DNA of 64,000 nt from assembly GCF_002854065.1 (NCBI RefSeq), contig NZ_CP024147.1. The stretch is one strand, 5' to 3'. Below the pieces are notes generated by a model. The model made no database searches. It was not told the origin of the DNA and saw nothing but the letters and a program-made list of their open reading frames with translations. The position numbers and the translations under genes were made by a program. Source of the stretch: Escherichia coli. GTDB lineage: Bacteria > Pseudomonadota > Gammaproteobacteria > Enterobacterales > Enterobacteriaceae. Shown here in pieces: positions 5,150 to 64,000 of the stretch (position 1 is its first letter; every line of letters starts with the position of its first letter).

Positions 5150-7123
5150 TCATCTCTGGAACACACACAATCCGTGTGCAGGTCCCTGCCAGACAGCCGT
5201 AATCACTGGGTTATCCTCTCCAGCGAATGGGGGAATGGCGTGCCACTCCCCAGCAGGTAAAACAATCTCTGTTACCTCAAGCGTGGCGTTAATTGCGATC
5301 AAAAAGCGATCCGAGAGCAGAATTTGCAGCTGTTTCGGCCCGTTTTGCCACTCATCCGTGCTTAAAGGTTGAGCATATCGATTTAGCCAACGGACATTGC
5401 CGTCGCCTTCTTCCCACCAGCGATTCTCCACCAAAGCGGGAATACGCTTGCGCAGATGGATTAACGCGGCGGTAAATGCGGTTAAACCACTGCTTGCCTG
5501 CGACCAGTCCAACCAGGTTAATTGGTTATCCTGACAGTAGGCATTGTTATTGCCATGCTGGCTGTGACCATGTTCGTCACCGGCCAGTAACATCGGCGTG
5601 CCCTGGGAGAGCAACAACGTTGTTAACAGGGCATGAATGCTGTCGCGCCGCCGTTCAACCAGATCAAGAGTACCGCCTAACCCTTCTTTACCATGATTGT
5701 TACTGTAATTGTTGTTGGTCCCGTCGCGATTTTCTTCTCCGTTTGCTTCATTGTGTTTATGGTTGAAACAAACGCAGTCGCGAAGCGTAAAACCGTCATG
5801 CGCGGTGACGAGATTAATCGCGGCACTCGGCAGACGACCATTACGTTTAAAAACATCGCTGGAGGCAGCAAAACGCCCGGCAAACGCCCCCAGAGGCAAA
5901 TCATAATGTAGCCAGAAACGACGGGCAGCATCGCGGAAATGATCGTTCCACTCGGCAAACAGCGGCGGGAAATTTCCCACCTGATAACCACCAGGAGCGA
6001 TATCCCACGGTTCAGCAATTAACTTCACCTGCGAGAGCACCGGGCAGTTCTGGATAGCGGTAAACAACGGCGCATCCTGACGGAACTCTGGCGTACGGCC
6101 CATGACTGCCGCCAGATCAAAGCGGAAACCATCGACGTGGCAGGTTTCTACCCAATAACGCAGGCAGGCGCTGGCATAATCCACCACCGCCGGGTGACTC
6201 AAATTGAGCGTGTTGCCACAACCGGTCCAGTTGTGATAATCGCCGTCTTCTCTTATCCAATAATAGCTACGGTTGTCGATCCCACGCAGCGAGAATAACG
6301 GGCCGTCGAGGTCCAGTTCCGCACTATGGTTGAGCACGATATCAAGAATGACTTCGATACCCGCTTTATGCAGTGCTTTGATTGCATCGCGAAACTCATG
6401 CAGCGCCGTTTCTGGCGAGCAGGCATACGCCGGATGCAGCGCAAACATCGCCACCGGGTTGTAACCCCAGTAGTTACTTAGCCCCATGCGTTGCAGACGT
6501 GGTTCACTGGCAAACTGCGCCACTGGCAGCAGTTCCAGCGCGGTAATGCCCAATTGTTTCAAATAGTTGATCATCACCGGATGCCCGAGGGCTTTATAAG
6601 TGCCACGGATCTCGACCGGGATCTCCGGGTGCAGGTACGTTAATCCTTTAACATGGGCTTCATAAATGATGGTGCTGCCCCACGGCGTGCGCGGCGGGGC
6701 ATCATCTTCCCAGTCATAGTGATCAACCACCACTACGCATTTCGGCGCAATGGCGGCGTTGTCGCGATAGTCAGGTTCATTATGACCGGCGTGCAGCAGC
6801 GGGTTATCTTTAAACTCCCCGTCAATTTGCCGCGCGCAAGGATCAATCAACAACTTCGCCGGGTTAAAGCGATGCCCCTCGGCGGGTTGCCAGGGGCCAT
6901 GAACGCGATAACCATAACGCAAACCCGGGCGCGCATCCGGCAGATAACCGTGCCAAATGTCGCCACTGTGCCCTGGCAAGTCATAGCGATGTTCCTGGCC
7001 ATTGGCGTCAAAGACACACAGCTCTACCCGCTCGGCATGAGCGGAGAAAAGTGTGAAGTTGACGCCCTGACCGTCGTAATGCGCGCCGAGGGGAGCGGGT
7101 TTGCCAATGGCGAGTTGTGTCAT
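5150..7123 (-). CDS. glgX: glycogen debranching enzyme (GH13)
   Basis: 657-aa [26 protein letters not shown]...; alpha-amylase family catalytic region. Confidence 0.95.
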
Positions 7124-9306: not shown

Positions 9307-9578
9307 GCTTGTCTTCCTGTTTTATTGTGTCACCCCATCCAATTGGATTTTTGACTTCTGGTTGTGACATTTTTTTGACCTGAACGGCGCAGCACTCTGT
9401 GCATCCTCTCTGCGTCGTCCTCACTTCAGGTAAGGCTGTGAATACTCATGTATTCAGCCACCCTTAAAGAATAGCCAATGCTCTATTTAACTCCCGGTAA
9501 ATCATGAAACATCTGCGCTTACTCCTGTATTACGCACTAACAGGGGCGGCATCGCGCCCCAGATTTAATGAATAAAGA

Positions 9579-11473: not shown

Positions 11474-11517
11474 AACAGGTGCTGCACACAACCAGACGCG
11501 GCACCTGTTTTATTACC
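11474..11517. terminator. hairpin plus T-run between convergent yhgN and the DprA-like gene (likely bidirectional terminator)
   Basis: Arms aaacaggtgc (11474-11483) and gcacctgttt (11501-11510), followed by ttttatt. Confidence 0.5.
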
Positions 11518-12715
11518 TGAACTGATAATGACCTTCGCCCAATCGGATAACCCTTCCCTCTTCTTCTGCGCGGTTCAGCCACACACTAATTTGTTCGATG
11601 GTTAAACCAGTACAAGACGCCAGCCTTTCAATACTTATCGATTCCTTTGCAAGGATCGCCAGTTCCGCCACAAAGAGTTGATAAAAATCGACAGGCGTAT
11701 ACGCGGGCATTACTGCGTAATTTGCGTCATCTTCATGCAGCGAAAACAGTTCTGGTTGAGCGTTACGGAGTGCTCTGTCATACATCAGCCCAGGAACGTC
11801 TGGCAGTCTGATCGTCACATTCTCAGCCTGTTCAGCACTCCATGACGCCCCATTTTCTACTAATCGTGAATTGGCTGATTGCATATCCTGATTTGGTTTA
11901 ACCTGCACAGGCAGCCACTGATGTTTTAATGCCTCCATCGCCCCGGTTATCGTTCCACCGGTCATTCCCGCACGTACAACCATTGCGCTTTCAGCAAGGC
12001 AATAAATATATTTATTTCGCGCCATCGCATTGCCGACGGTGAAACGTACCTCTGGGTAAAACGGCGAAATCAACACCAGGTTGCCTGCTATAAGCCCTTC
12101 ACGCCATTTCACTAACGTACTCGTTTTTAACAAGCTATCAGCTAATACGCCAACGGCAGTTCCCCCGGCCTCCAGTACCGACGCCATTGCACATTCATCA
12201 ATACCTCGCGCACCACCAGAGATAACGCAAATCCCCTGTTGGGCCAGTTTCGCGGCCAGTTGTTGGGTATAGCGCAAATCGTCAGTCGGAGCATCTCGCG
12301 AGCCAACAATCGCCATACCTTCCGCTTGCAGTAATGCTTTATTCCCGCAGCCAAATAAAACGGGAGGTGCATCCGTTCGCAATCGGTTTTTCAAGCGAAC
12401 GGGATAATCAGCATCTCCGCGGGTTAAGATCCATAAACCGGCGCGTTGCCACTTATCTACCGCCAACGCCAGACTATGACCACGCGCCAGCAAGCCAAGA
12501 ATACGCTCCTGAGAAATACGCGGATCGCTCCAGCCTGTAAGTTTCTCTTGCGGTTGCGGCACCAGAAGCTCGGCGGGACTGATACGTTGGTGCTTCAGCC
12601 ATAATGCAAACTTCCCCCATTCACTATTACTAAGAGGTTTATACTCACTCGCCGCCGCGCGAGAAAAATCGCTGGTTAGCAGGAGAGTTGCTTGTGCATT
12701 GGCTGAAAGATTCAT
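11513..12715 (-). CDS. DprA/Smf-like (DNA-processing protein A family) protein
   Basis: ORF 11513..12808; DprA Rossmann-core signature ...IVGSRDAPTDDLRYTQQLAAKLAQQGICVISGGARGIDECAMASVLEAGGTAVGVLADSL... Start set at ATG 12713-12715, which overlaps the upstream TGA (12715-12717) by 1 nt; alternative start 12808. Confidence 0.75.
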   Translation of the reverse strand: MNLSANAQATLLLTSDFSRAAASEYKPLSNSEWGKFALWLKHQRISPAELLVPQPQEKLTGWSDPRISQERILGLLARGHSLALAVDKWQRAGLWILTRGDADYPVRLKNRLRTDAPPVLFGCGNKALLQAEGMAIVGSRDAPTDDLRYTQQLAAKLAQQGICVISGGARGIDECAMASVLEAGGTAVGVLADSLLKTSTLVKWREGLIAGNLVLISPFYPEVRFTVGNAMARNKYIYCLAESAMVVRAGMTGGTITGAMEALKHQWLPVQVKPNQDMQSANSRLVENGASWSAEQAENVTIRLPDVPGLMYDRALRNAQPELFSLHEDDANYAVMPAYTPVDFYQLFVAELAILAKESISIERLASCTGLTIEQISVWLNRAEEEGRVIRLGEGHYQFR

Positions 12716-14822
12716 CAATTTTTTACCGAGGTAGAAGCAAGGGCAAGAGGATAAACCGTCGGGCAACCTGCCTGGCGTAACAGTGCTGTCAGAACTGTCA
12801 GCGTCCATGCAGAATCCACGATATCGTCAACCAGCAACGCCGGACCAGGCATCAAAGGAGGGGTAATCACAAACGCCCCGTCGAGATTTTGACACTGGTG
12901 GAAACGGTTTTGCTGCATTTTCTGCGGTGGATTGTCCACGACTTTTTCAATGGCATCAATAATAGGTAAGCCAAGTTTCGCCGCCAGTCGCCGGGCAAAA
13001 TCAGGAACCAGGTCGAGGTGCTTTAATGAAGGAACGCAGCATACCCAGGTTGGTTCAGGATGCGGATTCCAGCGTTGGCGAACCATTTCCGCACATGCCT
13101 CCACCAGTTCATCACTGAATCGCCCCGTTTTTTTCTCCTGTGCTACCTGCTTTCCCCACCCGGAATCTCCCCAACGAGAAAGGATTCGCCCCGTAGATCC
13201 TTGTAAAATCGCAGGCAAGTTCCCTTTAAATCCGTATTGCGTAAAAGCCCCAGCTGCCACCTGTTTATTGAGATTTAATGACAGGTCAGCGTGTTTAATA
13301 AATAAGTTTGCCGCATGGAGTAAGCCGCTATCAATGTCGGGCGACAACAACGGATGCTGAAGACAACTGCTACATTTACCACAATGTTCGGCACCTGGCT
13401 CATCGAGTGCGCGGCGCAGAAATTGCATTTTGCACTCCTTGGTCGTGATATAGCTTTCAACGTCTGCCAGCTCACTTTTTCTCTGATTCATCAAATGGTT
13501 AATTCGTTCATGGTCAGGAGAAAAACTGACAATTGTTCTGCGCCATAATTTCTCGGTATACACCACAGGCGATGGATTTTCAGCTACCAATAATTTCAGT
13601 GCTTTTTCTATTTGCCCATAACGGAGATTCGTCCGTTGTTCAATGCCTCGTAAGGTAAGACCGTCATTCACGCTAAGTACGTTGAGTATTTCATGAATTT
13701 GCGCCTCCGCAGGAAAGGCGCTTTCACGGAAGAATTTATGAATAGCACGGTCTTCACTGCCGCAAAGCAGTATGCCAACAGCAGAATCGATACCGCGACC
13801 GGCACGCCCCACCTGTTGGTAGTAACCAACTATCGAACCTGGCATCTGGTAATGAATAACAAACCCCAAATCCGGTTTGTCAAAGCCCATTCCCAGCGCC
13901 GTTGTCGCAACCAGCACTTTAATTTTATTTGCCAGCAACGCCTGCTCCAGATATTCCCTGGCAGTATTAGAATCTTCCGCGCCTTCACAAGTCACGCCGC
14001 TGTAGTAAGCAAATGCACTGATACCATTTTTCCTTAACCACTCGGCGACAAGTTCGGCATCGCGAGTAGTCAGGGTATAAACAATTCCCGATTTGGAAAA
14101 CTGAGGGAAAACTGAGGGATAACCGTTGCTAACCATGCCAGACGGGATGACTGTTCACCTAAGACTAAGGCATCAAGCGCCAAACTTTCGCGAGCCAGCG
14201 TTCCACGCTGAATCACAATGTCACCCAATTGCTGACGGATATCCTCAACGACACGGTTATTCGCTGTCGCGGTTGTACCCAGAACAGGGGTATTCGCAGG
14301 TAGTTGGCGCAAAATATCTAATATACGTCGGTAATCCGGGCGAAAATCGTGGCCCCAATCAGAGATGCAGTGCGCCTCGTCGACCACAAGCAAGCCAATA
14401 TGATCGGCTATAGGATATAAAACCGTTTCGATAAAGTCCTGGTTTGCCAAACGTTCCGGGGAAACCAGCAAGCAATCGACCTCACCTTGCAGCAACTTAT
14501 CGCTAATGCGCTGCCATTCTTCTCTGTTTGTAGAATTCAACGTTTCAGCCGTAATACCTAACCGTTCAGCGGCGGCAACCTGGTTACGCATCAGGGCAAG
14601 CAAAGGAGAGATGATAATTGTCGGGCCAGCGCCGCGATCGCGGAAGATTTTACTGGCGATGAAGTACACAGCACTTTTCCCCCAGCCAGTGCGTTGGACA
14701 ACCAGCAGTTTTCGCCGTTGGTTCACCACCGCGTCTATGGCTTCCCATTGCCCTTCCCTGAAAGTAGCGGTGGTATTTCCTAACATCCGCTGTAAAAGCA
14801 ATTCAGCTGCGTGCTTTTCCAT
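12715..14822 (-). pseudogene. RecQ-like helicase fused to a C-terminal ComF/PRTase-like domain, frameshifted by an 11-bp tandem duplication
   Basis: Two overlapping minus-strand ORFs (14070..14822 and 12715..14136). The N-terminal part carries Walker A QRTGWGKS and DEAH-type VVDEAHCISDWGHDFRPDY; the C-terminal part carries the helicase C-domain (VATTALGMGFDKPDLGFVIHYQMPGSIVGYYQQVGRAGRG), a CxxCxxC cluster and a PRPP-binding-like ALLVDDIVDS segment. Deleting one 11-bp copy in silico joins them into a ~696-codon ORF (...ATVIPQFSKSGIVYTLTTRDAE...). Confidence 0.75.
14097..14118. repeat. perfect 11-bp tandem duplication (aaaactgaggg x2) causing the helicase frameshift
   Basis: Copies at 14097-14107 and 14108-14118 read directly from the sequence. 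Confidence 0.9.
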
Positions 14823-17968: not shown

Positions 17969-18191
17969 CGTCCTGAAGGTACAAAAGAGATAGATTCTCT
18001 TAGTTTAACACGGACGCATCAGAACCTTCCCGGGGAAAACAGTGCTTGTTTACAATTATTAGATATACACTAAATCAATTGCATCGCATTGTGCTAACGA
18101 CGCGGCAAAACCCCGGAAGCGTACATCAGCACGCGACCGGAGCGAGCGAGGAAGCCTGCAAAAAGGCAGGCTTCAAAGATGCCGTTGAGTT

Positions 18192-18887
18192 TTAAACCGG
18201 CGGCAGATCGAACAGTAACACTTCGCTGTCGCTATCCGCATGGATGGAGATTGCCTGCTCATCCCAGATTGCCAGACCATCGCTGGTCGAGGCTTTCACG
18301 CCGTTAATGGTGACATTGCCTTTCACCACCTGGATCCAGACGCGGCGTTCAGCGGCAATCTGATGCACCGACTGCTCATCTTTCAGCAACGCCCAGCGGT
18401 ACAGTTCCATATCCTGATGCACTTTCAATGAGCCATCTCGCGCATCCGGCGAGAGCACCAGCTGTTTGCCCTGTACGGCATCGAAGCGACGCTGTTCATA
18501 ACGCGGCGTAATACCGTTTTCTTCAGGCATGATCCAGATCTGATACAGATGCAGACGCTCGGTGCTGCTTGGGTTGTACTCTGAGTGACGAATACCCGTA
18601 CCAGCACTCATAATCTGGAACTCACCCGCCGGAACCTGCTCTTTATTGCCCATGCTGTCCTGGTGCTCAACAGTACCTTCCAGCACGTAGGTCAAAATTT
18701 CCATATCTTTATGCGGGTGAGTGCCGAAGCCCTGCCCTGCTTCAATCACGTCGTCGTTAATCACGCGCAGCGCGGAGAAGCCCATAAAGTTCGGATCGTA
18801 ATAGTTGGCAAAAGAGAAAGTATGCCAGGAGTCCAGCCAGCCATGATTTGCATGACCACGTTCATTTGCTTTGCGTAAGTAGATCAT
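18192..18887 (-). CDS. yhhW: pirin-like cupin (quercetin 2,3-dioxygenase family)
   Basis: 231-aa ORF with cupin His motif GFGTHPHKDMEILTYVLEG. Confidence 0.9.
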   Translation of the reverse strand: MIYLRKANERGHANHGWLDSWHTFSFANYYDPNFMGFSALRVINDDVIEAGQGFGTHPHKDMEILTYVLEGTVEHQDSMGNKEQVPAGEFQIMSAGTGIRHSEYNPSSTERLHLYQIWIMPEENGITPRYEQRRFDAVQGKQLVLSPDARDGSLKVHQDMELYRWALLKDEQSVHQIAAERRVWIQVVKGNVTINGVKASTSDGLAIWDEQAISIHADSDSEVLLFDLPPV

Positions 18888-19009
18888 TTGTATTCGCCCC
18901 CTGAATGATTTCGATGGGCTTAGTGTGGACCCGATCTGCCTGGGATGATAGAGGGTGAAAATTGCCCCCTCTGTTCAAAAAAATTGAACTATTAGAGGGG
19001 CCATCAAAC

Positions 19010-20047
19010 TTACTTCGCGAGAGTCACTGTGGAGGGAGAGGCTTGCTCGAATCCGCGTTCAAGGATTTCCAGATTGGTAAGAACTTCAGATTCCTTGACG
19101 TAATTTGGCGCACCGTGGGTGATGGTTTGATACAACGCATCATAAACGCGCCCGTAATCGCCCATCTCCGGCTTCATCTCTTCTCTGACCGTCACGCCCT
19201 CGTCATTGACATACTCCAGCACACCGACCGAATCATCCGCTGCGAATCCCGGTTCGCCCGGCATAATATTAGCCTTCAGGCTGGTTTCCTGCTGGTCGAT
19301 ACCGTATTTAATAAACGAACCTTTCTTACCGTGAACGATAAATTTCGGATAATCGATTTTCACCAGATGGCTGGTTTTGACGATGGCTTTTAGATCGCCA
19401 TAAAACAGTTGCGCTTCGAAAGTATCGTCAGGATTGGCTTTAATGCGCAGGCTGCGGATGTCATAAGCGACGTGATCCGGGCGACCGAACAGAGAAATAA
19501 TCTGGTCCATCGTATGCACACCAAGGCCATAGAACGCGCCATCCTGCGGCAGCCCAGGTTTGGTTTCTGCCACCGGGCGGTAATAGTCAAAATGGCTTTC
19601 CACTTCGACAATCTCTCCCAGCTTGCCGCTTTCAATCGCTTTTTTCGCCGTCAGGAAGCAGGAATCAAAGCGACGATTCTGATATGGCGTGACGGTCAGC
19701 CCTTTGCTTTTCGCCAGTGCAAACAGCTCTTTCGCCTGCGCAAGTGTCGGAGTGAACGGTTTTTCGACCAGCACATTTTTCCCGGCTTCCAGCGCGCGCT
19801 TCGCGTACTCGAAGTGGCTGTCCGCATGGGTGCAGACAACAACCAGCTTAACATCGGGATCGTTTAGCACTTCGTTGAGATCGCTGGTGAAATGGATATG
19901 AGAGTAAATGGGAGCTTGTTCTTCCGGCTTTGCATGGCGGCGAAAAATATGCGCGACATGCCAGCTATCCTTGCGGTTAAGTACATACGGCAGATGGTAA
20001 CGGGTGGTGCTTTTGCCGAAGCCAATAAAGGCGCAGTTGATGACCAT
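19010..20047 (-). CDS. yhhX: Gfo/Idh/MocA-family oxidoreductase
   Basis: 345-aa ORF MVINCAFIGFGKSTTRYHLPYV... (N-terminal Rossmann). Confidence 0.9.
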   Translation of the reverse strand: MVINCAFIGFGKSTTRYHLPYVLNRKDSWHVAHIFRRHAKPEEQAPIYSHIHFTSDLNEVLNDPDVKLVVVCTHADSHFEYAKRALEAGKNVLVEKPFTPTLAQAKELFALAKSKGLTVTPYQNRRFDSCFLTAKKAIESGKLGEIVEVESHFDYYRPVAETKPGLPQDGAFYGLGVHTMDQIISLFGRPDHVAYDIRSLRIKANPDDTFEAQLFYGDLKAIVKTSHLVKIDYPKFIVHGKKGSFIKYGIDQQETSLKANIMPGEPGFAADDSVGVLEYVNDEGVTVREEMKPEMGDYGRVYDALYQTITHGAPNYVKESEVLTNLEILERGFEQASPSTVTLAK

Positions 20048-20169
20048 GATTTCGTCCTTTTTAAGGTGGTTATTTACACCTTAGCGCAAAGCGGACGTGG
20101 TTCCTACTGGAGTGCGCATAACGAACACAAGCACTTCCCGAGGATAAATTGAGAACGAAAGATCAAAAA

Positions 20170-20259
20170 AAAAGCCAGCACCCGGCTGGCTAAGTAATAC
20201 TGGAAGCAATGTGAGCAATGTCGTGCTTTCAGGTTCTCCGCGAGGGTCTTCCTGATCGC
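20170..20259 (-). ncRNA. ryhB: RyhB iron-sparing small RNA
   Basis: Reverse complement reads GCGATCAGGAAGACCCTCGCGGAGAACCTGAAAGCACGACATTGCTCACATTGCTTCCAGTATTACTTAGCCAGCCGGGTGCTGGCTTTT, ending in a terminator hairpin and U-run; lies in the yhhX-yhhY intergenic region. Confidence 0.9.
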
Positions 20260-20263
20260 GAGA

Positions 20264-20284
20264 CAATAATAATCATTCTCATTC
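20264..20284 (-). promoter_or_regulatory. Fur box overlapping the ryhB promoter
   Basis: Minus-strand gaatgagaatgattattattg resembles the GATAATGATAATCATTATC consensus, immediately upstream of the RyhB 5' end. Confidence 0.55.
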
Positions 20285-20380
20285 GCACTTGTCCAACACT
20301 TTTTGCAAAAAAATGCATTTGACTCGCATTCGAAAGTCAATGATGTTGAAAGGGACTTTTACCCCAAAGAGGACAAAGGA

Positions 20381-20869
20381 ATGAGTGAGATAGTGATACG
20401 CCATGCTGAAACGCGCGATTACGAGGCCATCAGGCAGATTCACGCCCAGCCGGAGGTGTATTGCAACACACTACAACTACCTCATCCTTCGGAAGGCTGG
20501 TGGCCAGAAAGATTGAAAGATCGCCAGGGTTTTAAACAACTGGTTGCCTGCATTGATGGCATCGTAGTGGGTCATCTTTTCATTGAGGCTTATCAAGGCC
20601 CACGCCGCAGTCATGTTGCAACTTTTGGTATCTGTGTTGACTCCCGCTGGCACAACCGCGGCATCGCCAGCGCCCTGATCCGCGAATTGATTGAAATGTG
20701 CGACAACTGGTTACGGATAGATCGTATTGAGTTGACGGTGTTTGCGGATAACGCCCCGGCAATCACAGTCTATAAAAAATTCGGATTTCACATAGAAGGC
20801 ACCGGCAAAAATTACGCTTTTCGTAATGGTGAATATGTCGATGCGTATTATATGGCGCGGGTGAAATAG
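20381..20869 (+). CDS. yhhY: GNAT-family N-acetyltransferase
   Basis: ORF 20303..20869; ATG at 20381 gives MSEIVIRHAETRDYEAIRQIH; GNAT acetyl-CoA motif region RGIASALI. Confidence 0.88.
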   Translation: MSEIVIRHAETRDYEAIRQIHAQPEVYCNTLQLPHPSEGWWPERLKDRQGFKQLVACIDGIVVGHLFIEAYQGPRRSHVATFGICVDSRWHNRGIASALIRELIEMCDNWLRIDRIELTVFADNAPAITVYKKFGFHIEGTGKNYAFRNGEYVDAYYMARVK

Positions 20870-20894
20870 AGAATTTGCAATCTAAGTTTGTCAT

Positions 20895-20925
20895 TTAAGC
20901 CCTCACCTACCGGGAGAGGGCTTAA
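20895..20925. terminator. hairpin between convergent yhhY and ggt
   Basis: Arms ttaagccctc (20895-20904) and gagggcttaa (20916-20925); no strong T-run. Confidence 0.4.
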
Positions 20926-20929
20926 GATA

Positions 20930-22675
20930 TTAATACCCCGCCGTTAAATCATCCACCGAGCGCGGGTCGGATGCGCCGTACAACTCACCGTCCGGCCCAA
21001 CCATAATGCTTTGTGTACTGCCCATCGCCTCTTTCAGCGCCACTTTCTGACCTTTTGCTTCCAGCAGCTTGAGCGTATCCGGGCTAAACCCTTTTTCGAC
21101 ACGCAGCTCGTCCGGCAACCACTGATGGTGGAAACGCGGCGCATTGGTCGCTTCGGCGACATTCATACCATAATCGATGCTATTCACCACCATTTGAAGC
21201 ACGGTGGTAATGATCCGGCTCCCGCCAGGGCTACCGGTGACCAGCCAGGTTTTACCGTCTTTCACCACAATGGTGGGTGACATCGATGACAGCGGGCGTT
21301 TGTTCGGCCCGACGGCGTTGGCATCACCGCCCACCAGCCCATAAATGTTCGGTACGCCCGGTTTGGCGGAGAAATCATCCATCTGGTTATTAAGCAGAAT
21401 ACCGCTCTCGCCCGCGACAATGCCCGTACCGAAGGTGGTGTTCAGCGTATAGGTCACCGCCACCGCGTTACCATCTTTATCCACCACTGAGTAATGGGTA
21501 GTTTGATTACTCTCATAAGGCGCAAGCTTACCAGGGCGAATCTCGCTGGACGGTTTCGCTTTATTGATATCGATTTGCTCGGCAATAGATTTGGCATAGG
21601 CTTTATTGGTCAGCGCCTGCCACGGGACTTTGACAAAATCCGGGTCGCCAAGATATTCCGAGCGGTCAGCGTAGGCATATTTCTCCGCTTCTGCCATGAT
21701 CTGCATCGCGTCGGCGCTGCCAAAACCGTATTTCTTCATATCGAAGTTTTCCAGAATATTGAGGATTTGTACGATATGGATCCCGCCGGAGGATGGCGGT
21801 GGCATGGAGTAAACCTGATACCCGCGATAATCGCCGCTTATCGGTGTGCGTTCGACTGCTTTATACGCCGCTAAATCTTCTTTAGTGATCAGGCCACCGT
21901 TTTTCTGCATCTCCTGGGCAATCTGTTCCGCTATCGTGCCTTTGTAGAATTCGTCCGGGCCGTTTTCGGCAATCATCTCCAGGTTCTTTGCCAGGTTCGC
22001 CTGCACCAGCTTGTCGCCCTTTTTCAGCGGCTCGCCCTCTTTCCAGAAGATAGCCTTGCTGTTTTCGTGATTCGGCAGCACTTCGCTCCCGTAGGTTTTG
22101 AGATCGTCAGCCAGCGCGTCGTTAACGATAAAACCATCGCGTGCCAGTTTAAACGCTGGCTGCACCACTTTGTTCAACGGCATTGTGCCGTATTTATCCA
22201 ACGCCAGCGAGAAACCAGCGACCGTACCGGGCGTGCCGGAAGCCAGATGCGAAGTGAGTGATTTTTTGCTGTCCGGGTTGCCCTGGTCATCGAGAAACAT
22301 ATCGCGGGTCGCTTTGGCGGGTGCCATTTCGCGGAAATCGATAGCGGTGGTATTGCCATTTTTCGAGCGGATCAGCATAAAACCACCACCGCCCAGATTC
22401 CCTGCCTGCGGATGCGTTACCGCCAGCGCGTAGCCCACAGCCACGGCGGCATCAACGGCATTCCCGCCCTCCTTGAGGATATCCACCCCCACCTGAGTGG
22501 CAGTAGCATCTACAGATGCCACCATCCCCTGTTTCGCGCGTACCGGATGAAAGACATCTTCCTCCACGCCGTAAGAAACAGGAGACGGCGCAGGTGGCGC
22601 GGCTACCGTACTAAAACAACTTCCTGAGAGCAGAGCAGCAATGGCCACCCGGCGTAAAAACGTCGGTTTTATCAT
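20930..22675 (-). CDS. ggt: gamma-glutamyltranspeptidase (periplasmic)
   Basis: ORF 20930..22702; ATG at 22673-22675 gives MIKPTFLRRVAIAALLSGSCFS (signal peptide). Confidence 0.94.
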   Translation of the reverse strand: MIKPTFLRRVAIAALLSGSCFSTVAAPPAPSPVSYGVEEDVFHPVRAKQGMVASVDATATQVGVDILKEGGNAVDAAVAVGYALAVTHPQAGNLGGGGFMLIRSKNGNTTAIDFREMAPAKATRDMFLDDQGNPDSKKSLTSHLASGTPGTVAGFSLALDKYGTMPLNKVVQPAFKLARDGFIVNDALADDLKTYGSEVLPNHENSKAIFWKEGEPLKKGDKLVQANLAKNLEMIAENGPDEFYKGTIAEQIAQEMQKNGGLITKEDLAAYKAVERTPISGDYRGYQVYSMPPPSSGGIHIVQILNILENFDMKKYGFGSADAMQIMAEAEKYAYADRSEYLGDPDFVKVPWQALTNKAYAKSIAEQIDINKAKPSSEIRPGKLAPYESNQTTHYSVVDKDGNAVAVTYTLNTTFGTGIVAGESGILLNNQMDDFSAKPGVPNIYGLVGGDANAVGPNKRPLSSMSPTIVVKDGKTWLVTGSPGGSRIITTVLQMVVNSIDYGMNVAEATNAPRFHHQWLPDELRVEKGFSPDTLKLLEAKGQKVALKEAMGSTQSIMVGPDGELYGASDPRSVDDLTAGY

Positions 22676-22794
22676 CGTTATTCTCCAGAGATTAAGGGGC
22701 AACCCCAGCTAAGCCTGGTATATAACTCTGAATTAATCCTGATGATTGCAGGAAAGGAGTAAACTTAAAGAATATCTTCAGAGGAGGATACGCG

Positions 22795-23235
22795 ATGAAA
22801 CGACTTCTGATTCTTACGGCACTCCTGCCGTTTTTCGGCTTTGCACAGCCCATTAATACTCTGAACAACCCTAACCAGCCGGGGTATCAGATCCCCAGTC
22901 AGCAGCGGATGCAAACCCAGATGCAGACTCAGCAAATCCAGCAAAAAGGGATGCTGAATCAGCAACTGAAAACGCAAACTCAGTTGCAACAACAGCATTT
23001 AGAAAACCAGATAAACAATAATTCTCAGCGGGTGTTGCAGTCACAGCCGGGGGAGCGAAATCCCGCCCGGCAGCAAATGCTGCCCAACACCAATGGCGGG
23101 ATGTTAAACAGCAACCGTAATCCGGATAGTTCGTTGAATCAGCAGCATATGTTGCCGGAGAGGAGAAACGGCGACATGCTGAATCAGCCCGGCACGCCGC
23201 AGCCTGATATACCGTTGAAAACTATTGGGCCGTAA
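22795..23235 (+). CDS. yhhA: secreted Q/N-rich low-complexity protein
   Basis: 146-aa [22 protein letters not shown]..., signal peptide then Gln-rich repeats; 3' end overlaps convergent ugpQ by 14 nt. Confidence 0.85.
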
Positions 23236-23965
23236 AGTTCGGACCAATCACATCAATCGCATCGGTACAGATGCAATCCACGCCCCAGCGCAGCAACTCT
23301 GCCGCGCGCTGGGGTTTATTGACGGTATAAACCAGAATCCGTAATCCGGCGTCTTTCAACTGCATCACTCGCGCTTTATCGAGTAACTTATGATTGAGAT
23401 GAATAGAGACGCAGCCCAGCCGCGCGGTCAGTTCTCGCCAGTCGTCGCGCCACTCATCCAGCAACAAACCGCGCGGCAGTTCTGGTACTGCCTGTTGTGC
23501 GGCTTCTAAAGCATCAATCTCAAACGATGACAGTAGCGGCGGCGTCATACCGGCCCACAGCTCGCGTGCCGCCAGCGCCACCATTTTGCCCGTTAATGGC
23601 CCGGTGCCAGTGGTGGGTTTGATTTCGATATTCGCCATCATCCCATGTTCGCGACAGCGTTCCGCCACCTGCGAAAGCAACGGCAGCGGCTCACCTTTAA
23701 ACGCTTTGCCGTACCAACTGCCTGCATCCACACGTAGTAAATCCTGCCAGTTCAGTTCACCCGCGACGCCCCAGCCGTTGCTGGTACGTTCAAGATTGTC
23801 GTCATGGAGCAGAAAGATCTCGCCATCTTTCGATAACTTCGCGTCAAATTCGATCATCTTATGACCGTATTTTGCCCCGACGTCGGTTGCCGCCAGGGTG
23901 TTTTCCGGGGCCAGCTTACCGCCGCCACGATGTGCGACGATGCGGGGATAAGGCCAGTTACTCAT
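23222..23965 (-). CDS. ugpQ: cytoplasmic glycerophosphodiester phosphodiesterase
   Basis: 247-aa [29 protein letters not shown] (GDPD motif). Confidence 0.94.
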
Positions 23966-25032
23966 ACTCGTTGTCCTGTTTCACCATCAAAAAGATGCAG
24001 CTGATTTTCCGCCAGATGCAGCCACAGCGTGCTGCCTGCCGTCGGGCGCTCCTGATGCGCCAGTCGCACCACCAGCTTCTGTTCGCCCCAGCGTCCGTGC
24101 GCCAGGTTATCTGCGCCGAGGATCTCCAGCGTGTCCATCACCAGCGGTACGCCGCCTTCTGCCTGCGAGCTTAGCGCAATATGTTCCGGGCGAATGCCGA
24201 GAGTCATTTTACGCCCGGCATACTGACGGTAGCCACCGTTTAGCGGTAGCACGATACCGCCGTCCAGTTCAAAATGCGTGCCTTCATTATTCACGCGGCC
24301 TGTCAGCAGATTCATCGCCGGACTGCCAATAAAACTCGCCACAAACAGGCTGGCGGGCTTTTCGTAGACTTCAACTGGCGTGCCAATCTGTTCGGCAACG
24401 CCGCCGTTCATCACCATTACTCGCTGGGCGAGCGTCATCGCCTCAACCTGATCGTGAGTAACGTAGAGTGATGTCGTTTTCAGGCGACGGTGCAGCTGTT
24501 GCAGTTCAAGACGCATCTGTACGCGCAGCTTGGCATCGAGGTTAGAGAGTGGCTCATCAAACAGGAACACCGCCGGATCGCGCACAATCGCGCGGCCCAT
24601 CGCCACACGCTGACGCTGACCGCCGGAAAGCTCGCGCGGGCGGCGCTTAAGCAGACCGTCCAGTTCCAGAATGCGCGCCGCCTCTTTAACGCGCTCGGCA
24701 ATTTGCTGCTTGCCCATGCCGCGAATTTTCAGCCCCCACGCCATGTTTTCTTCAACACTCATATGCGGATAAAGCGCGTAGTTCTGGAACACCATCGCAA
24801 TCCCGCGATCTTTCGGCTCCATTTCGGTCACCCGCTGGTCGTTGATCCAGATATCGCCTTCCGTCACCCGCTCCAGCCCGGCAACCATGCGCAGCAGCGT
24901 CGATTTCCCGCAGCCTGACGGCCCGACCATCACGATAAATTCGCCATCCGCCACATCAAGGGTCAGCGGTTTAATCACCTGGGTTTTGCCATCCCAGCTT
25001 TTGGTTACTGCCTGTAATTTCAGTCCTGCCAT
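23962..25032 (-). CDS. ugpC: sn-glycerol-3-phosphate ABC transporter ATPase
   Basis: ORF 23962..25071; ATG at 25030-25032 gives [13 protein letters not shown]; Walker [10 protein letters not shown], signature LSGGQRQR. Confidence 0.94.
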
Positions 25033-28314: not shown

Positions 28315-28435
28315 GCGGTGACGGTACGGGTGAGGGAAAATGGGAGATGGGGCACGGATATCCCGAGAATGCACTGAAAAGAGGCGATTAACGGCCAGCT
28401 AATCGCCAGAACTCCTTACCATGAAGAGCAAAAAT

Positions 28436-28466
28436 GGCAGCAAATTCTGCGTCCAGTTTTGCTGCC
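28436..28466 (-). terminator. hairpin plus T-run downstream of ORF 28537..29283 / liv operon
   Basis: Arms ggcagcaaa (28436-28444) and tttgctgcc (28458-28466); minus strand continues atttttgctctt. Confidence 0.45.
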
Positions 28467-28536
28467 CGATGAGAGCTACATTTTTCAATTTTAACAAAAG
28501 ATTGCCGCGACACTGGTCTAACGGCAAAGAAGATTT

Positions 28537-29283
28537 TCATTGCACCACACTCTGCTTCAACCGTTCATTGGCGGTCTTAATCCATTCCCGGTGGTGTTTT
28601 CTATAATGAGGTCTTGAGCGTTTAGCCGTATCAACTACAGCAACATACTGCTCGTTGGCTTCACGTAACCGACTCATTTTCGCCAACATTTCCGCATAGT
28701 AAATACGCGCCTGCGGGCCGGGGTAATAAGAAATCAATACTTCAAACTCGCTTTCCGCATCAGCGTATTTTTCTTGTGCGGCTAACGTTCTGGCAAATAA
28801 CAAATGCCCGTCTGCCGACTGAAAATCAGGGTTATAACGCATCACATCTTCCAGCGTCTGCTGACAGGCGGCGAACTCCTGAATAGCAAACTGTGCCTGC
28901 GCCAGGCTTAGCATCATTGCCGCTTCATGGGCGAATATCCCGCTTAACGCCTGCTGATAATGGGGAACGGCTTCGTGGTAACGCTCCAGACGCGCCAGCT
29001 CGTTGGCAAGTTGATAGTGGTTTTGATTGGTCTCGGCAATCGCCAGCTCTTCGGTTAATTTGCGCAGGTGACGTTCCGGATTGATTTTGTCCTGCAGGCG
29101 CATCAGAAAGGTACGCCCGTGACGGTCAGCGCCCGTTTCTGGCAGCATCACCATGACAAAATACGCCACGCAACCAATCACCGGAAAACAGAAGATGATA
29201 AAAAACCAATATCGCTCTTGTCCGGTACGGTAAGCGTGGATACAGCAAAGCATTTCAAGCATGGCGACAACGGCATAATGCAT
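28537..29283 (-). CDS. hypothetical membrane-anchored protein (PLDc_N-like hydrophobic N-terminus plus TPR-like helical repeats)
   Basis: 248-aa ORF; N-terminus HAYRTGQERYWFFIIFCFPVIGCVAYFVMVML resembles the N-terminal anchor of phospholipase-D-like proteins; C-terminal helical repeats (YHEAVPHYQQAL...); no K-12 gene recalled. Confidence 0.6.
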   Translation of the reverse strand: MHYAVVAMLEMLCCIHAYRTGQERYWFFIIFCFPVIGCVAYFVMVMLPETGADRHGRTFLMRLQDKINPERHLRKLTEELAIAETNQNHYQLANELARLERYHEAVPHYQQALSGIFAHEAAMMLSLAQAQFAIQEFAACQQTLEDVMRYNPDFQSADGHLLFARTLAAQEKYADAESEFEVLISYYPGPQARIYYAEMLAKMSRLREANEQYVAVVDTAKRSRPHYRKHHREWIKTANERLKQSVVQ

Positions 29284-48557: not shown

Positions 48558-49607
48558 ATGGAAACCCCTCAACCCGATAAAACGGGCATGCACATTCTGC
48601 TCAAGCTGGCCTCGCTGGTAGTGATCCTGGCGGGCATTCACGCAGCGGCAGATATCATTGTGCAGCTGTTACTGGCGCTGTTTTTTGCCATCGTCCTCAA
48701 CCCGCTCGTCACCTGGTTTATTCGTCGGGGAGTACAACGCCCCGTTGCCATTACGATTGTAGTGGTGGTGATGCTGATCGCACTAACCGCGCTGGTCGGC
48801 GTACTGGCGGCATCGTTTAACGAATTTATCTCTATGCTGCCGAAGTTTAATAAGGAGCTGACGCGCAAACTTTTTAAATTGCAGGAGATGTTGCCTTTTC
48901 TTAATTTGCATATGTCGCCGGAGCGAATGCTGCAGCGGATGGACTCGGAAAAAGTGGTTACCTTCACCACGGCGCTAATGACCGGGCTTTCCGGGGCAAT
49001 GGCGAGCGTGCTTTTGCTGGTGATGACCGTAGTTTTTATGCTGTTTGAAGTGCGCCACGTCCCTTACAAAATGCGTTTTGCGCTGAATAACCCACAGATT
49101 CACATCGCAGGATTACACCGCGCACTTAAAGGCGTTTCGCATTATCTGGCGTTAAAGACGCTACTCAGTTTATGGACAGGTGTCATCGTCTGGCTGGGGC
49201 TGGAGCTGATGGGGGTGCAGTTTGCGCTGATGTGGGCAGTACTGGCGTTTTTGCTTAACTACGTGCCCAATATCGGCGCGGTAATTTCCGCCGTACCGCC
49301 AATGATTCAGGTGCTGCTGTTTAATGGTATTTACGAATGTATTCTGGTCGGCGCATTGTTTTTAGTTGTCCATATGGTCATCGGCAATATTTTAGAGCCA
49401 CGGATGATGGGCCATCGCCTGGGGATGTCCACCATGGTGGTATTTCTTTCATTGTTAATTTGGGGATGGCTGCTCGGCCCGGTAGGGATGCTACTTTCGG
49501 TGCCATTAACCAGCGTGTGTAAAATCTGGATGGAAACGACGAAAGGCGGTAGCAAACTGGCGATTTTACTGGGGCCGGGCAGACCGAAAAGTCGGTTACC
49601 GGGTTAA
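48558..49607 (+). CDS. yhhT: AI-2E/PerM-family transporter
   Basis: ORF 48477..49607; ATG at 48558 (RBS aagga) gives METPQPDKTGMHILLKLASLVV. Confidence 0.9.
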   Translation: METPQPDKTGMHILLKLASLVVILAGIHAAADIIVQLLLALFFAIVLNPLVTWFIRRGVQRPVAITIVVVVMLIALTALVGVLAASFNEFISMLPKFNKELTRKLFKLQEMLPFLNLHMSPERMLQRMDSEKVVTFTTALMTGLSGAMASVLLLVMTVVFMLFEVRHVPYKMRFALNNPQIHIAGLHRALKGVSHYLALKTLLSLWTGVIVWLGLELMGVQFALMWAVLAFLLNYVPNIGAVISAVPPMIQVLLFNGIYECILVGALFLVVHMVIGNILEPRMMGHRLGMSTMVVFLSLLIWGWLLGPVGMLLSVPLTSVCKIWMETTKGGSKLAILLGPGRPKSRLPG

Positions 49608-49626
49608 TAGCACCTCCTGAGCAGGC

Positions 49627-49657
49627 AATGGCCACCGTTTATCTAACAGTGGCCATT
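49627..49657 (+). terminator. yhhT terminator hairpin
   Basis: Arms aatggccac (49627-49635) and gtggccatt (49649-49657), followed by tgatttg. Confidence 0.45.
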
Positions 49658-49659
49658 TG

Positions 49660-49986
49660 ATTTGAGGAAATGATGAAACATTATTCAGAAAATTAATTTA
49701 AAAAAACCATTCCTTAAGTCAAATATATATAAACGCCGAATAGCGATTAAATCCTTCTCAAAGAATGCACTGATAACATTGTGTTATTTTTATTGCCTCA
49801 TTTTTCTCACTCACTTATAGTTGGTCCCTGCTGGCAGTAATTTAGTCATTTCAGAGATTTTTACTCTGATGTGCACTTACTGACTTATCTCACAAGTAAT
49901 TTTTTCTCTAAATAAAGAATAGTGATGCCAGCAATTACAGTTAAATCTTGCTTTACTCGTAAAAACAATACTTTAATGGGGTTCTA
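49660..49986. other. AT-rich junction between core (yhhT) and accessory cluster; probable island boundary and cluster promoter
   Basis: Visibly AT-rich (long A/T runs), no ORFs in any frame, immediately precedes the first cluster gene. Confidence 0.6.
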
Positions 49987-50376
49987 ATGAGACATTACAT
50001 GAAGTGGTTTGCGGCTATTGCTGTTGTGGGTGCTTTAGCAGGTTGCGCGCGTACTGCGCCAATTGATCAGGTTCACTCAACCGTCAGCGCTGGTCATACC
50101 CAGGAACAAGTGAAAAAAGCGATTCTGAAAGCTGGCGTTGAACGCAAATGGATTATGTCCGAAGCCGGACAAGGCATAATTAAAGCACGTCAACAGTCAC
50201 GCGATCATTCAGCGGAAATACGCATTAACTACACGGCATCCAGCTACGATATCAATTATGAAAATAGCCAGAACCTACAAGCGTCAGGCGGACAAATTCA
50301 TAAAAACTACAATCGCTGGGTCCGCAATCTCGACAAAGATATTCAACTGAATTTGTCAGCGGGCGCAGATTTATAA
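49987..50376 (+). CDS. small lipoprotein, first gene of the APE-type cluster
   Basis: 129-aa ORF MRHYMKWFAAIAVVGALAGC (signal peptide plus lipobox); alternative start 49999; lower GC than downstream genes. Confidence 0.7.
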   Translation: MRHYMKWFAAIAVVGALAGCARTAPIDQVHSTVSAGHTQEQVKKAILKAGVERKWIMSEAGQGIIKARQQSRDHSAEIRINYTASSYDINYENSQNLQASGGQIHKNYNRWVRNLDKDIQLNLSAGADL

Positions 50377-50435
50377 TTCTTCCTAAAGTCGGGCCGTTGC
50401 GGTCCGATAATAATTTAATTCCCTCTTAACAGGTT

Positions 50436-51503
50436 GTGCCCAACATGTACGAACAGGATTCTCTTAGCGCACTGGATGCGATTACCGAAGCTCAACGCAT
50501 TGCCTTTGCCCCTATGCTTTTTCAAACAGCACTCTGCCTACGTAATGCGGGTGTACTTTCATATCTGGATCGGCAAGGCAAACATGGCGCAACGCTGGCT
50601 GATATCACCGAACATAGCCATATCAACGAATATGCTGCCAGCGTTCTGTTAGATATGGGCTTAAGCGGGCGAATTATTACCTGTAAAGAGGGAATTTATT
50701 ACCTGGCGAAAATCGGTCATTACCTCCTGCATGACACTATGACTCGCGTGAATATGGATTTCACCCAGGATGTCTGTTACCAGGGGCTCTTCTTCCTCGC
50801 CGATTCACTCAATGAAGGAAAACCTTCCGGGTTAAAAGTATTTGGCGACTGGTCGACGATATATCCGGCACTTTCGCAATTACCAGACGCCGCTCGTGAA
50901 AGCTGGTTTGCGTTTGATCATTACTATTCAGATGGCGCATTTAACGCCGTACTGCCTTATGTATTCGCCAACAACCCCACAACATTGTACGATGTAGGCG
51001 GCAATACGGGTAAGTGGGCTTTGCGTTGCTGCAAATACAATGAAAACATCGCCGTGACGTTATTAGATCTGCCACAACAAATCGTACTAGCGAAAGAAAA
51101 TATCGCGAATGCAGGTTTTTCTGATCGCATAGATTTCCATGCGGTGGATATGCTAAGCGATGCCCCATTACCGGGCGAGGCTGATATCTGGTGGATGAGC
51201 CAATTTTTAGACTGTTTTTCACCCGAACAAATAATTAGCATACTCAGCAAAATTGCCAGCGTAATGAAGCCTGGCGCAAAAGTTTGCATCATGGAGTTGT
51301 TCTGGGATGCGCAGCGGTTTGAAGCAGCATCGTTTAGCCTGAACGCGTCCTCACTTTATTTTACCTGCATGGCAAACGGTAACAGCCGTTTCTATAGTGC
51401 AGAGAAATTTTACGACTATCTGAATAAAGCAGGATTCCAGGTAGCAGAGCGCCACGATAATTTAGGCGTTGGGCATACACTTTTGATATGCCAAAAGAAA
51501 TAA
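50436..51503 (+). CDS. apeB: SAM-dependent (O-)methyltransferase
   Basis: 355-aa ORF; Rossmann SAM motif LYDVGGNTGKWAL. Symbol inferred from conserved ape cluster order; verify. Confidence 0.7.
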   Translation: MPNMYEQDSLSALDAITEAQRIAFAPMLFQTALCLRNAGVLSYLDRQGKHGATLADITEHSHINEYAASVLLDMGLSGRIITCKEGIYYLAKIGHYLLHDTMTRVNMDFTQDVCYQGLFFLADSLNEGKPSGLKVFGDWSTIYPALSQLPDAARESWFAFDHYYSDGAFNAVLPYVFANNPTTLYDVGGNTGKWALRCCKYNENIAVTLLDLPQQIVLAKENIANAGFSDRIDFHAVDMLSDAPLPGEADIWWMSQFLDCFSPEQIISILSKIASVMKPGAKVCIMELFWDAQRFEAASFSLNASSLYFTCMANGNSRFYSAEKFYDYLNKAGFQVAERHDNLGVGHTLLICQKK

Positions 51504-51543
51504 TCGTCACTTAATAATTTTGGTTTACCGCGGGCGCGCGTTG

Positions 51544-52266
51544 ATGAAATTTACATTAAATATTACCGACTGGCAGGCACTGGCGCCTGGACTTAGCGAA
51601 GCGCAGCAATGGCAAGCATGGTCGCGCCAGCCGTGGGCGATTGACCCTGCCGCGCCGTTGGCAAAATTAAGTGAACTGCCAATGATGACCGCCCGCCGCC
51701 TCAGTTCAGGCAGCAAACTGGCTGTTGAATGCGGTCTGGCAATGCTACGCCGCCATCAGCCAGACGCCGTTTTGTATACCAGTCGTCATGGCGAACTGGA
51801 GCGCAATTACCGCATTGTTCATGCACTGGCAACCGAACAGGCGCTTTCTCCGACGGACTTCGCGCTCTCCGTACACAACTCTTCCGTGGGTAACCTGACC
51901 ATTGCGGCCAAACAGCCGATCGTTTCGTCATCGCTTTCGGCTGGTCGCGACACTTTCCAGCAAGGTTTGTGTGAAGTGCTTAGTCTGTTACAGGCGGGCT
52001 ACCAGCGCGTGTTGATGGTCGATTTTGATGGCTTTCTGCCTGAGTTCTATCATCCACAACTGCCCGCAGAAATGCCGACCTGGCCGTACGCCGTCGCGCT
52101 GGTGATTGAAGCTGGCGATGAGTGGCAATGTGGAACGCAGTCAGCCATTGCGGGTAATGAAACAACACTGCCGCAAAGCATGTTGTTTTTACAGCACTAT
52201 TTACAAAATGCGGACACATTTTCACTGCCTGGCGAGCGCGTACAGTGGCGCTGGAGCCGTGGATGA
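51544..52266 (+). CDS. apeC: short KS-like partner protein (chain-length-factor-like)
   Basis: ORF 51520..52266 (TTG); ATG at 51544 gives MKFTLNITDWQALAPG; about 240 aa, far shorter than a full KAS; ATGA overlap with the next gene. Confidence 0.6.
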   Translation: MKFTLNITDWQALAPGLSEAQQWQAWSRQPWAIDPAAPLAKLSELPMMTARRLSSGSKLAVECGLAMLRRHQPDAVLYTSRHGELERNYRIVHALATEQALSPTDFALSVHNSSVGNLTIAAKQPIVSSSLSAGRDTFQQGLCEVLSLLQAGYQRVLMVDFDGFLPEFYHPQLPAEMPTWPYAVALVIEAGDEWQCGTQSAIAGNETTLPQSMLFLQHYLQNADTFSLPGERVQWRWSRG

Positions 52267-53084
52267 GTAAGCTGCTGTCACGTCTGGAGTGGACCTGGCG
52301 ACTGGTCATGACCGGGTTATGTTTTGCCCTGTTTGGTCTCGGCGGCCTGCTGCTTTCTGTCGTGTGGTTTAACATATTGTTAGTTTTGGTGTGGGATACT
52401 TCCCGCCGCCGTCGTTTGGCGCGTCGCAGCATTGCCGCCAGTTTTCGCCTGTTTTTAACTGTCGCGAAAGGGCTTGGCGTGCTGGATTATCGTATTGATG
52501 GCGCTGAAATTTTACGTCAGGAACGCGGTTGCCTCGTCGTAGCCAATCATCCCACGCTGATCGATTACGTGCTGCTGGCGTCAGTCATGCCAGAAACTGA
52601 CTGCCTGGTGAAAAGCGCGCTGTTAAAAAATCCTTTTCTTGGCGGCGTCGTGCGGGCGGCAGATTATTTAATCAACAGCGAAGCTGAAACCCTGTTACCC
52701 CGCTGCCAACAGCGACTGGCACAGGGTGACACTATCCTGATTTTCCCCGAAGGCACGCGAACGAAGCCCGGTGAAAAAATGACGCTGCAGCGCGGGGCGG
52801 CGAATATTGCCGTGCGCTGTGCCAGCGATTTACGCATCGTGACGATCGGCTGTAGCGAGCATCTGCTGGATAAACAAAGTAAATGGTATGACGTTCCACC
52901 TGACCGGCCGTTTTTTACGGTTGCAGTCCATGGTCGGGTTGAAATCAATAAATTTTACGATGCAACTTCACAAGAACCGGCGCTGGCAGCAAGGCAGTTA
53001 AACCGGCATCTTTTGCTTCAATTACAACAAGGTTGTTTACCTCTCTCAGGAATAAATAATGCAAGCGCTTTATCTGGAAATTAA
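52263..53084 (+). CDS. lysophospholipid/glycerol-3-phosphate acyltransferase family protein
   Basis: ORF 52245..53084; HX4D motif NHPTLIDY and FPEGTRT motif; start chosen at the ATGA overlap (52263). Confidence 0.75.
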   Translation: MSKLLSRLEWTWRLVMTGLCFALFGLGGLLLSVVWFNILLVLVWDTSRRRRLARRSIAASFRLFLTVAKGLGVLDYRIDGAEILRQERGCLVVANHPTLIDYVLLASVMPETDCLVKSALLKNPFLGGVVRAADYLINSEAETLLPRCQQRLAQGDTILIFPEGTRTKPGEKMTLQRGAANIAVRCASDLRIVTIGCSEHLLDKQSKWYDVPPDRPFFTVAVHGRVEINKFYDATSQEPALAARQLNRHLLLQLQQGCLPLSGINNASALSGN

Positions 53085-53316
53085 AAACCTCATCATCAGC
53101 ACCCTCAATCTGGACGAGTTGACGCCTGATGATATCGATACCGACGCGCCGCTGTTTGGCGACGGTTTAGGGCTGGACTCTATCGATGCCCTGGAACTGG
53201 GACTGGCAGTAAAAAATGAGTACGGCATCGTGCTCTCTGCGGAAAGCGAAGAGATGCGTCAGCACTTTTTCTCCGTCGCCACTCTGGCCTCTTTCATTGC
53301 TGCGCAACGTGCCTGA
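53059..53316 (+). CDS. apeE: acyl carrier protein
   Basis: 85-aa acidic ORF with phosphopantetheine-site motif LGLDSIDALEL. Confidence 0.8.
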   Translation: MQALYLEIKNLIISTLNLDELTPDDIDTDAPLFGDGLGLDSIDALELGLAVKNEYGIVLSAESEEMRQHFFSVATLASFIAAQRA

Positions 53317-53327
53317 GGAAAGCCATC

Positions 53328-53579
53328 ATGACAGAACAACAAACCGTCTATCAGGAAGTCTCAGCCCTGCTGGTTAAGCTGTTTGAAATCGATCCGCAGG
53401 ACATCAAACCTGAAGCGCGCCTGTACGAAGATCTGGAACTGGACAGCATCGACGCCGTTGACATGATTGTGCACCTGCAAAAGAAAACCGGTAAGAAAAT
53501 CAAGCCGGAAGAGTTTAAAGCAGTGCGTACAGTCCAGGATGTCGTCGAGGCTGTAGAACGCCTGCTACAAGAAGCCTGA
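53328..53579 (+). CDS. apeF: acyl carrier protein
   Basis: 83-aa ORF with LELDSIDAVDM motif. Confidence 0.8.
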   Translation: MTEQQTVYQEVSALLVKLFEIDPQDIKPEARLYEDLELDSIDAVDMIVHLQKKTGKKIKPEEFKAVRTVQDVVEAVERLLQEA

Positions 53580-53583
53580 TCTG

Positions 53584-57530: not shown

Positions 57531-57533
57531 AGG

Positions 57534-63789: not shown

Positions 63790-64000
63790 CACGTCGCGTA
63801 GTGATTACAGGAATGGGCGGCGTGACTGCCTTTGGTGAAAACTGGCAGGACGTTTCTGCACGCTTACTGGCGTATGAAAATGCGGTGCGCAAAATGCCGG
63901 AGTGGCAGGTCTACGATGGCCTGCACACCCTGCTTGGCGCGCCTGTTGATGATTTCACGCTACCGGAGCACTATACCCGCAAGCGTATCCGTGCGATGGG
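63786..64000 (+). CDS. apeR: beta-ketoacyl-ACP synthase (partial, N-terminal 71 codons; continues beyond window)
   Basis: ATG at 63786 (ATGA overlap with KR); MTRRVVITGMGGVTAFGENWQD (KAS N-terminus). Confidence 0.75.
   Translation, partial: MTRRVVITGMGGVTAFGENWQDVSARLLAYENAVRKMPEWQVYDGLHTLLGAPVDDFTLPEHYTRKRIRAM

Follow-up and report, generated by a model that had tools for sequence, protein, structure and literature searches.

Hotspots of accessory genes in Escherichia coli lie between conserved core genes, and their contents are exchanged by recombination. A previous study predicted that yhhZ-yrhAB constitutes one genomic island, 'Gist34' (PMC3309015). YhhZ was described as an 'evolved Hcp' whose HNH domain was called degenerate (PMC2907695), and as a His-Me finger nuclease of polymorphic toxin systems (PMC5714182). 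Hcp-ET1, a Hcp-HNH DNase with a cognate immunity gene, is an antibacterial toxin delivered by a type VI secretion system (T6SS), and K-12 itself lacks a T6SS (PMC6730261, reviewing Ma et al. 2017). The study that predicted 'Gist34' also credited E. coli yhhZ-yrhAB with methionine-to-cysteine conversion, citing work on Bacillus subtilis (PMC3309015). What these E. coli genes encode is a predicted Hcp-HNH toxin, a member of the YrhA family and an Imm35 protein. The attribution appears to be name-based, resting on shared gene names only.

In the stretch of E. coli DNA analysed here (64,000 nucleotides, hereafter the window), none of these genes stands between yhhY and ggt, which are separated by a spacer of 60 bp. 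We show herein the outgroup polarity, the anatomy, the population frequencies and the recombination breakpoints of this junction. The 60-bp junction very probably represents the ancestral, empty allele of a site at which ~80% of complete E. coli genomes carry an AT-rich cassette of horizontal origin. This finding is ordinary, and the island has already been recognised as foreign DNA in the K-12 literature.

Anatomy of the yhhY-ggt junction and of the K-12 insert

The genes yhhY (+ strand) and ggt (- strand) converge, and the distance between their stop codons is exactly 60 bp, a point on which the window sequence, the list of open reading frames (ORFs) and the RefSeq annotation (that of the 100%-identical strain E. 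coli CUWW06) agree (Table 1). A sequence-only reading of this DNA had described the two genes as convergent, with a 60-bp gap that contains a single hairpin, and the sequence, ORFs, annotation and folding all bear out that description. YhhY matched Pfam Acetyltransf_1 (1.6e-16) and the NCBIfam equivalog NF007527 (1.8e-97). The spacer is composed of a leader of ~28 nucleotides followed by a GC-rich hairpin. It matched no Rfam family; RyhB, located upstream between yhhX and yhhY, was the sole RNA family found. The RyhB gene is missing from the feature table of the CUWW06 record.

Table 1. Features of the window discussed in the text, with their coordinates
Feature	Position	Strand	Basis or remark
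DprA gene and frameshifted RecQ-family helicase gene, between yhgN and gntU	11513-14822		K-12 has only 56 bp there
RyhB sRNA	20166-20230	-	Rfam, 83.1 bits, E 7e-16
yhhY, GNAT N-acetyltransferase gene	20381-20869	+	stop TAG 20867-20869; ORF list, RefSeq annotation
Divergent yhhY patch	20471-20830 (approximate)	+	~79% nucleotide identity to other Escherichia alleles
yhhY-ggt spacer, unoccupied form of the K-12 island site	20870-20929	.	collinear with its counterparts in EC958, 042, E. albertii, E1V33 and E69
Spacer hairpin (UUAAGCCCUC ... GAGGGCUUAA)	20895-20925	.	folds stably on both strands
ggt, gamma-glutamyltransferase	20930-22675	-	stop codon 20930-20932; ORF list, RefSeq annotation
Tetratricopeptide-repeat protein and small ORF, between ugpB and livF	28388-29283		no K-12 counterpart
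Gene cluster downstream of yhhT	49604-64000		no K-12 match; K-12 has acpT-nik-rhsB there

A distance of 3,454 bp separates these two stop codons in K-12 MG1655, and the interval contains yhhZ, a yrhA pseudogene split by IS1E, yrhD and yrhB. The statement of the sequence-only reading that several genes and an IS1 copy lie between yhhY and ggt in K-12 was therefore correct. The segment that it gave, yhhZ-yrhA-IS1-yrhB, named genes that are indeed present; it left out yrhD and placed IS1 beside yrhA, whereas the element sits inside that gene. In blastn alignments of the window with K-12, homology breaks off at the junction, at 20868, and restarts at 20930, and K-12 does not possess the same 60-bp junction. 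The flanks are orthologous up to this point (95.6% identity over 18000-20868 and 96.0% over 20930-25000), and the two ggt genes are 96% identical from the stop codon onward. Local alignment of the window's spacer with the whole K-12 island picked up nothing but the hairpin stem (score 17) and one 10-mer, with no island remnant.

The K-12 insert has a GC content of 31-35%, versus ~50-58% in its flanks. It is supported as foreign, horizontally acquired DNA, with the K-12 reference in the derived state at this site. YhhZ begins with an N-terminal Hcp/TssD domain (Pfam T6SS_HCP, 1.6e-11; TIGR03344, 1.3e-34), and its match to HNH is weak (17.4 bits, below the Pfam cutoff of 21.4). Intact YrhA (164 amino acids, strain EC556) matched NCBIfam NF038335 (3.4e-37). 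An immunity-type gene is found downstream of the YhhZ gene, namely that for YrhB, which matched Pfam Imm35 (4e-23). The cassette is thus predicted to encode a Hcp-HNH type VI toxin (YhhZ), YrhA, YrhD and an Imm35 immunity protein (YrhB), of which the first and last would act as toxin and immunity protein, respectively.

The insert contains no integrase and no att site. A target-site duplication in K-12, which the sequence-only reading had proposed to look for, was not found for the island, whose ends carry neither such a duplication nor att repeats (the longest direct or inverted repeats there are 7-mers). The motifs 'TGTCATT' and 'CAAAAT', which occur at both ends, were considered as a duplication and discarded as too short to interpret. 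Only IS1E within yrhA has a duplication, of 9 bp (GACATTAAA), and since this duplication is its own, the element represents a later hit within the island.

The 10-bp outer stem of the window's hairpin is formed by pairing of 20895-20904 with 20916-20925 (core AAGCCCTC...GAGGGCTT at 20897-20923), and folding of the hairpin yields -19.7 kcal/mol for the + strand, with a z of -3.0, and -18.9 kcal/mol for the - strand, with a z of -3.4. Conservation of the stem extends across Escherichia, 98.7% of cells being paired. A search for covariation yielded one compensatory pair, which was equalled by 74 of 500 shuffles and is not significant; we therefore claim conservation alone for this structure. No U-tract follows the stem on its 3' side on either strand (the sequence there is AAGAUAUUAAU for the + strand, AAAUGACAAAC for the - strand), and it is for want of a canonical U-tract that the hairpin is absent from the terminator scan list. 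The K-12 variant of the hairpin has UAUUUUGU on the ggt strand. The hairpin is probably a common 3'-end/terminator structure for the yhhY and ggt transcripts.

A REP/BIME-type dispersed repeat was also considered for the hairpin and rejected, as it gave a single match in the 64-kb window at up to three mismatches. By eye, the spacers of Citrobacter and Klebsiella look distinct from the Escherichia hairpin. E. albertii has the same stem, but the interior of its hairpin (locus 6482-6514; TCCCGGTAGGCGA) reads as the reverse complement of that in E. coli (ACCTACCGGGA), which looks like a flipped hairpin loop.

Outgroup polarity, junction types and their frequencies

When one genome per bacterial species was scanned with a YhhY profile, 45 loci were recovered, of which 41 contained ggt as well as yhhY. 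In 38 of these 41 loci the two genes lie side by side in convergent orientation, a short gap apart; the gap measure ranges from 41 to 129 in the 38 loci, versus 67 for the window. All five Escherichia species representatives in which both genes were found show the adjacency. The spacer is 62 bp in E. albertii, 70 bp in E. whittamii and 60 bp in Escherichia sp. E1V33, and two further species representatives labelled as E. coli have spacers of 60 and 59 bp. Spacers of 36-122 bp occur in the sampled Citrobacter, Enterobacter, Klebsiella, Lelliottia, Trabulsiella and Pluralibacter, and yhhY and ggt are likewise direct convergent neighbours in Kluyvera. Moreover, the Escherichia spacers (E. albertii, E1V33, E69, E. 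whittamii and SCPM; 59-70 bp) align column for column with that of the window, hairpin included. The adjacency in outgroups, together with these collinear spacers, argues strongly that the compact junction is ancestral and that K-12 carries an insertion. The sequence-only reading had offered, as if they were two options, that this strain shows the uninterrupted state or that K-12 carries an insertion; these are one and the same proposition, and the outgroups speak for it.

Three of the 41 loci are exceptions, with msrA/msrB-like genes in Buttiauxella, a metNIQ-like transporter in Franconibacter and degraded repeats in Leclercia. The idea that the site is a toxin hotspot in other genera as well was rejected, as the inserts of these three genera are unrelated.

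The distribution of the junction types within the species was drawn from 5,426 complete E. coli genomes. A compact junction is present in 986 of them (18%), ~90 of which, as judged from identity bands, have the second variant described below. The gene yhhZ is present in 3,806 (70%; genomes with a yhhZ match, counted by match rather than by locus), the DUF4225 cassette in 343 (6%; essentially the O157:H7/O55:H7 lineage), and derivatives and other states, obtained by subtraction, in ~290 (~5%). The filled state is the E. coli majority and the compact state a common minority, an ordinary presence/absence difference. The compact state is present in the ST131 strain EC958 and in strain 042. That the short junction is an artefact of assembly or collapse is close to inconceivable: nothing counts for such a reading, and the same junction was recovered in 986 complete genomes from independent projects, EC958 and 042 included, as well as in other Escherichia species.

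The island-bearing types comprise the full island (K-12, 536 and EC556), the DUF4225 cassette of O157, a yrhB-only form with a 431-bp spacer and an IS1-yrhD-yrhB form of 1,690 bp. All of them have the same right end, AGCCCTCTTCCCACGAAGAGGGCCGCTAACC, which abuts the ggt stop codon, and their left ends differ. In the O157 form a 5' remnant of yrhB is fused to the hairpin, which suggests that the island types descend from one yrhB-containing insertion that was remodelled afterwards.

A second compact variant was found in E. coli 2009C-3133 (locus 9311-9369, 59 bp). This junction is composed of the left 28 nucleotides of the window's spacer, followed by a hairpin and 3' flank of the K-12 type. Island-bearing genomes align to it from the first base of the hairpin onward, so the island is bounded by the yhhY stop codon on one side and the hairpin on the other. 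As an empty-site reference, the 2009C-3133 junction suits the island-bearing haplotype best.

Partial deletions of the island exist, as the yrhB-only form, the IS1-yrhD-yrhB form and the O157 form with its 5' yrhB remnant illustrate, and a precise deletion of a K-12-type island in this lineage could be imagined as the source of the window's junction. We hold such an origin to be highly improbable. The island haplotypes are devoid of the 28-nucleotide left part of the ancestral spacer and differ in the hairpin interior and the 3' flank; no deletion could have restored a spacer in column-for-column agreement with those of E. albertii and E1V33, and the window's spacer is free of island sequence.

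Exchange of junction alleles and the history of this lineage

Two strains with opposite junction states illustrate how the alleles move. The uropathogenic strain 536 (island) and EC958 (compact) have the same YhhY protein; nucleotides 1-347 of their yhhY genes are identical, nine differences fall within nucleotides 348-489, and the first ~450 bp of ggt are 99-100% identical. Every sampled island allele ends yhhY with AAG-TAA (last codon and stop), whereas every sampled compact allele ends it with AAA-TAG or AAA-TAA. These breakpoints, together with the split in the last codon and stop, indicate that the two junction states are swapped through homologous recombination within the genes on either side.

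The course of events that we consider very probable is as follows. In the ancestral state, yhhY and ggt converged on a short spacer. A cassette then came to lie after the yhhY stop codon and before a variant of the ancestral hairpin, the arrangement of K-12 and most E. coli, and IS1E entered yrhA afterwards. Homologous recombination, crossing over near the 3' end of yhhY and within ggt, has carried both the filled and the empty allele through the species.

The yhhX, ryhB, ggt 5' half and yhhA of the window are 99.1-99.5% identical to those of an O157-type genome that carries the DUF4225 cassette, whereas 20471-21630, spacer included, is only 79-97.7% identical to that genome. The high-identity flanks around this lower-identity segment place the junction inside a recombination mosaic of ~1.2 kb. 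Since alleles move by recombination in the flanks, the empty allele of this lineage could be a secondary acquisition: the junction would once have been filled and then exchanged, through homologous allelic replacement, for that of a compact-type donor, and the sequence itself would still be of the ancestral type. We regard this history as possible but rather doubtful. The mosaic is what it would leave behind, such swaps do occur (536 and EC958 have common flanks and different junction states), and EC556 combines the rare yhhY allele described below with the full island. Nonetheless, acquisition of its cassette by the O157 lineage through recombination into a window-like background would be expected to leave this pattern as well, and the 3' 700 bp of the window's ggt have no close match in any sampled genome (97.7% at most). 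Whether it was always empty or was regained, the junction sequence of the window is of the ancestral type.

The ggt gene is unusually diverse and mosaic in E. coli: compared in 350-bp blocks, pairs of alleles share 92-99% identity, roughly as little as they share with other Escherichia species. The yhhY-ggt segment of the window was matched at an identity of at least 98% by only seven of the 5,426 genomes.

A more unusual feature than the junction itself is the divergent patch within yhhY. Over ~360 bp, the window's allele is 79% identical to those of K-12, EC958, O157, E. albertii, E. whittamii and E1V33, and these six alleles are 91-96% identical among themselves. The dS of the patch is ~0.9, versus 0.35 for K-12 against E. 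albertii, and its dN/dS is 0.14, with values of 0.11-0.14 in every sub-region, which gives no signal of positive selection. The patch occurs in ~161 of the 5,426 E. coli genomes (~3%), with a bimodal distribution of identity, and searches of one genome per species and of 5.8 billion proteins turned up no donor. Linkage of the rare yhhY allele to the compact state was rejected, as EC556 carries the rare allele with the full island and EC958 is compact with the common allele. One might suppose that the patch is a long-lived functional polymorphism in the acceptor-binding half of the GNAT protein, selected beside a toxin/immunity hotspot, and not a neutral relic from an unsampled Escherichia-like lineage; we consider this supposition improbable.

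Among enterobacterial genera, the identity of YhhY to the window's protein is 59-79% and varies even among Enterobacter species, versus mostly 84-93% for YhhX and GGT across the same loci. The lower identity of YhhY than of its neighbours indicates that yhhY evolves, or is exchanged, much faster than the genes for YhhX and GGT.

Relation to other variable spots and to known systems

Three other spots at which the window departs from K-12 are listed in Table 1. The RecQ gene of the yhgN-gntU spot is also carried by the uropathogenic strain 536. At the ugpB-livF site, 2009C-3133 has a Doc/Phd toxin-antitoxin pair, which marks this site as another small variable spot. The cluster downstream of yhhT encodes acyl carrier proteins, ketoacyl synthases, dehydratases, an AMP-binding enzyme, a glycosyltransferase, and MMPL and LolA-like proteins, and presumably resembles an aryl-polyene-type lipid cluster.

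For the yhhY-ggt site, the comparison fixes the direction of the difference: the K-12 segment yhhZ-yrhA::IS1E-yrhD-yrhB was acquired, and the 60-bp junction is the original. It also supplies an empty-site reference at the level of single bases, plus a second compact variant with a K-12-type hairpin, both of which are useful for annotating a small toxin/immunity hotspot, and it serves as a reminder that at yhhY-ggt the K-12 reference is the derived state.

The closest described counterpart is the yhhZ-yrhA-yrhD-yrhB island of K-12, which occupies the same chromosomal site between orthologous yhhY and ggt genes (96-97% identity up to the stop codons). Unlike it, the window has none of the 3,454 bp and retains the ancestral 60-bp spacer with a different hairpin variant. 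The likeness to Hcp-ET1-type cassettes belongs to the K-12 insert and is absent from the window; it is a likeness of domain architecture, in which an Hcp N-terminus, joined in YhhZ to a candidate HNH nuclease domain that scores below threshold, is followed by immunity-type genes (Imm35). The hairpin of the window, for its part, is like the bidirectional intrinsic terminators of convergent genes in being single, GC-rich, located between converging stop codons, stable on both strands and conserved in the genus, but it is unlike them in having no U run on either strand, and the K-12 variant has UAUUUUGU. As compared with the recombination-exchanged hotspots of E. coli, the yhhY-ggt site is small (0.06-3.5 kb) and has no adjacent tRNA gene; it nonetheless resembles them in its alternative cassettes (yhhZ, DUF4225, yrhB-only and IS1 derivatives), in having no integrase or att site, and in the position of its breakpoints within the flanking core genes.
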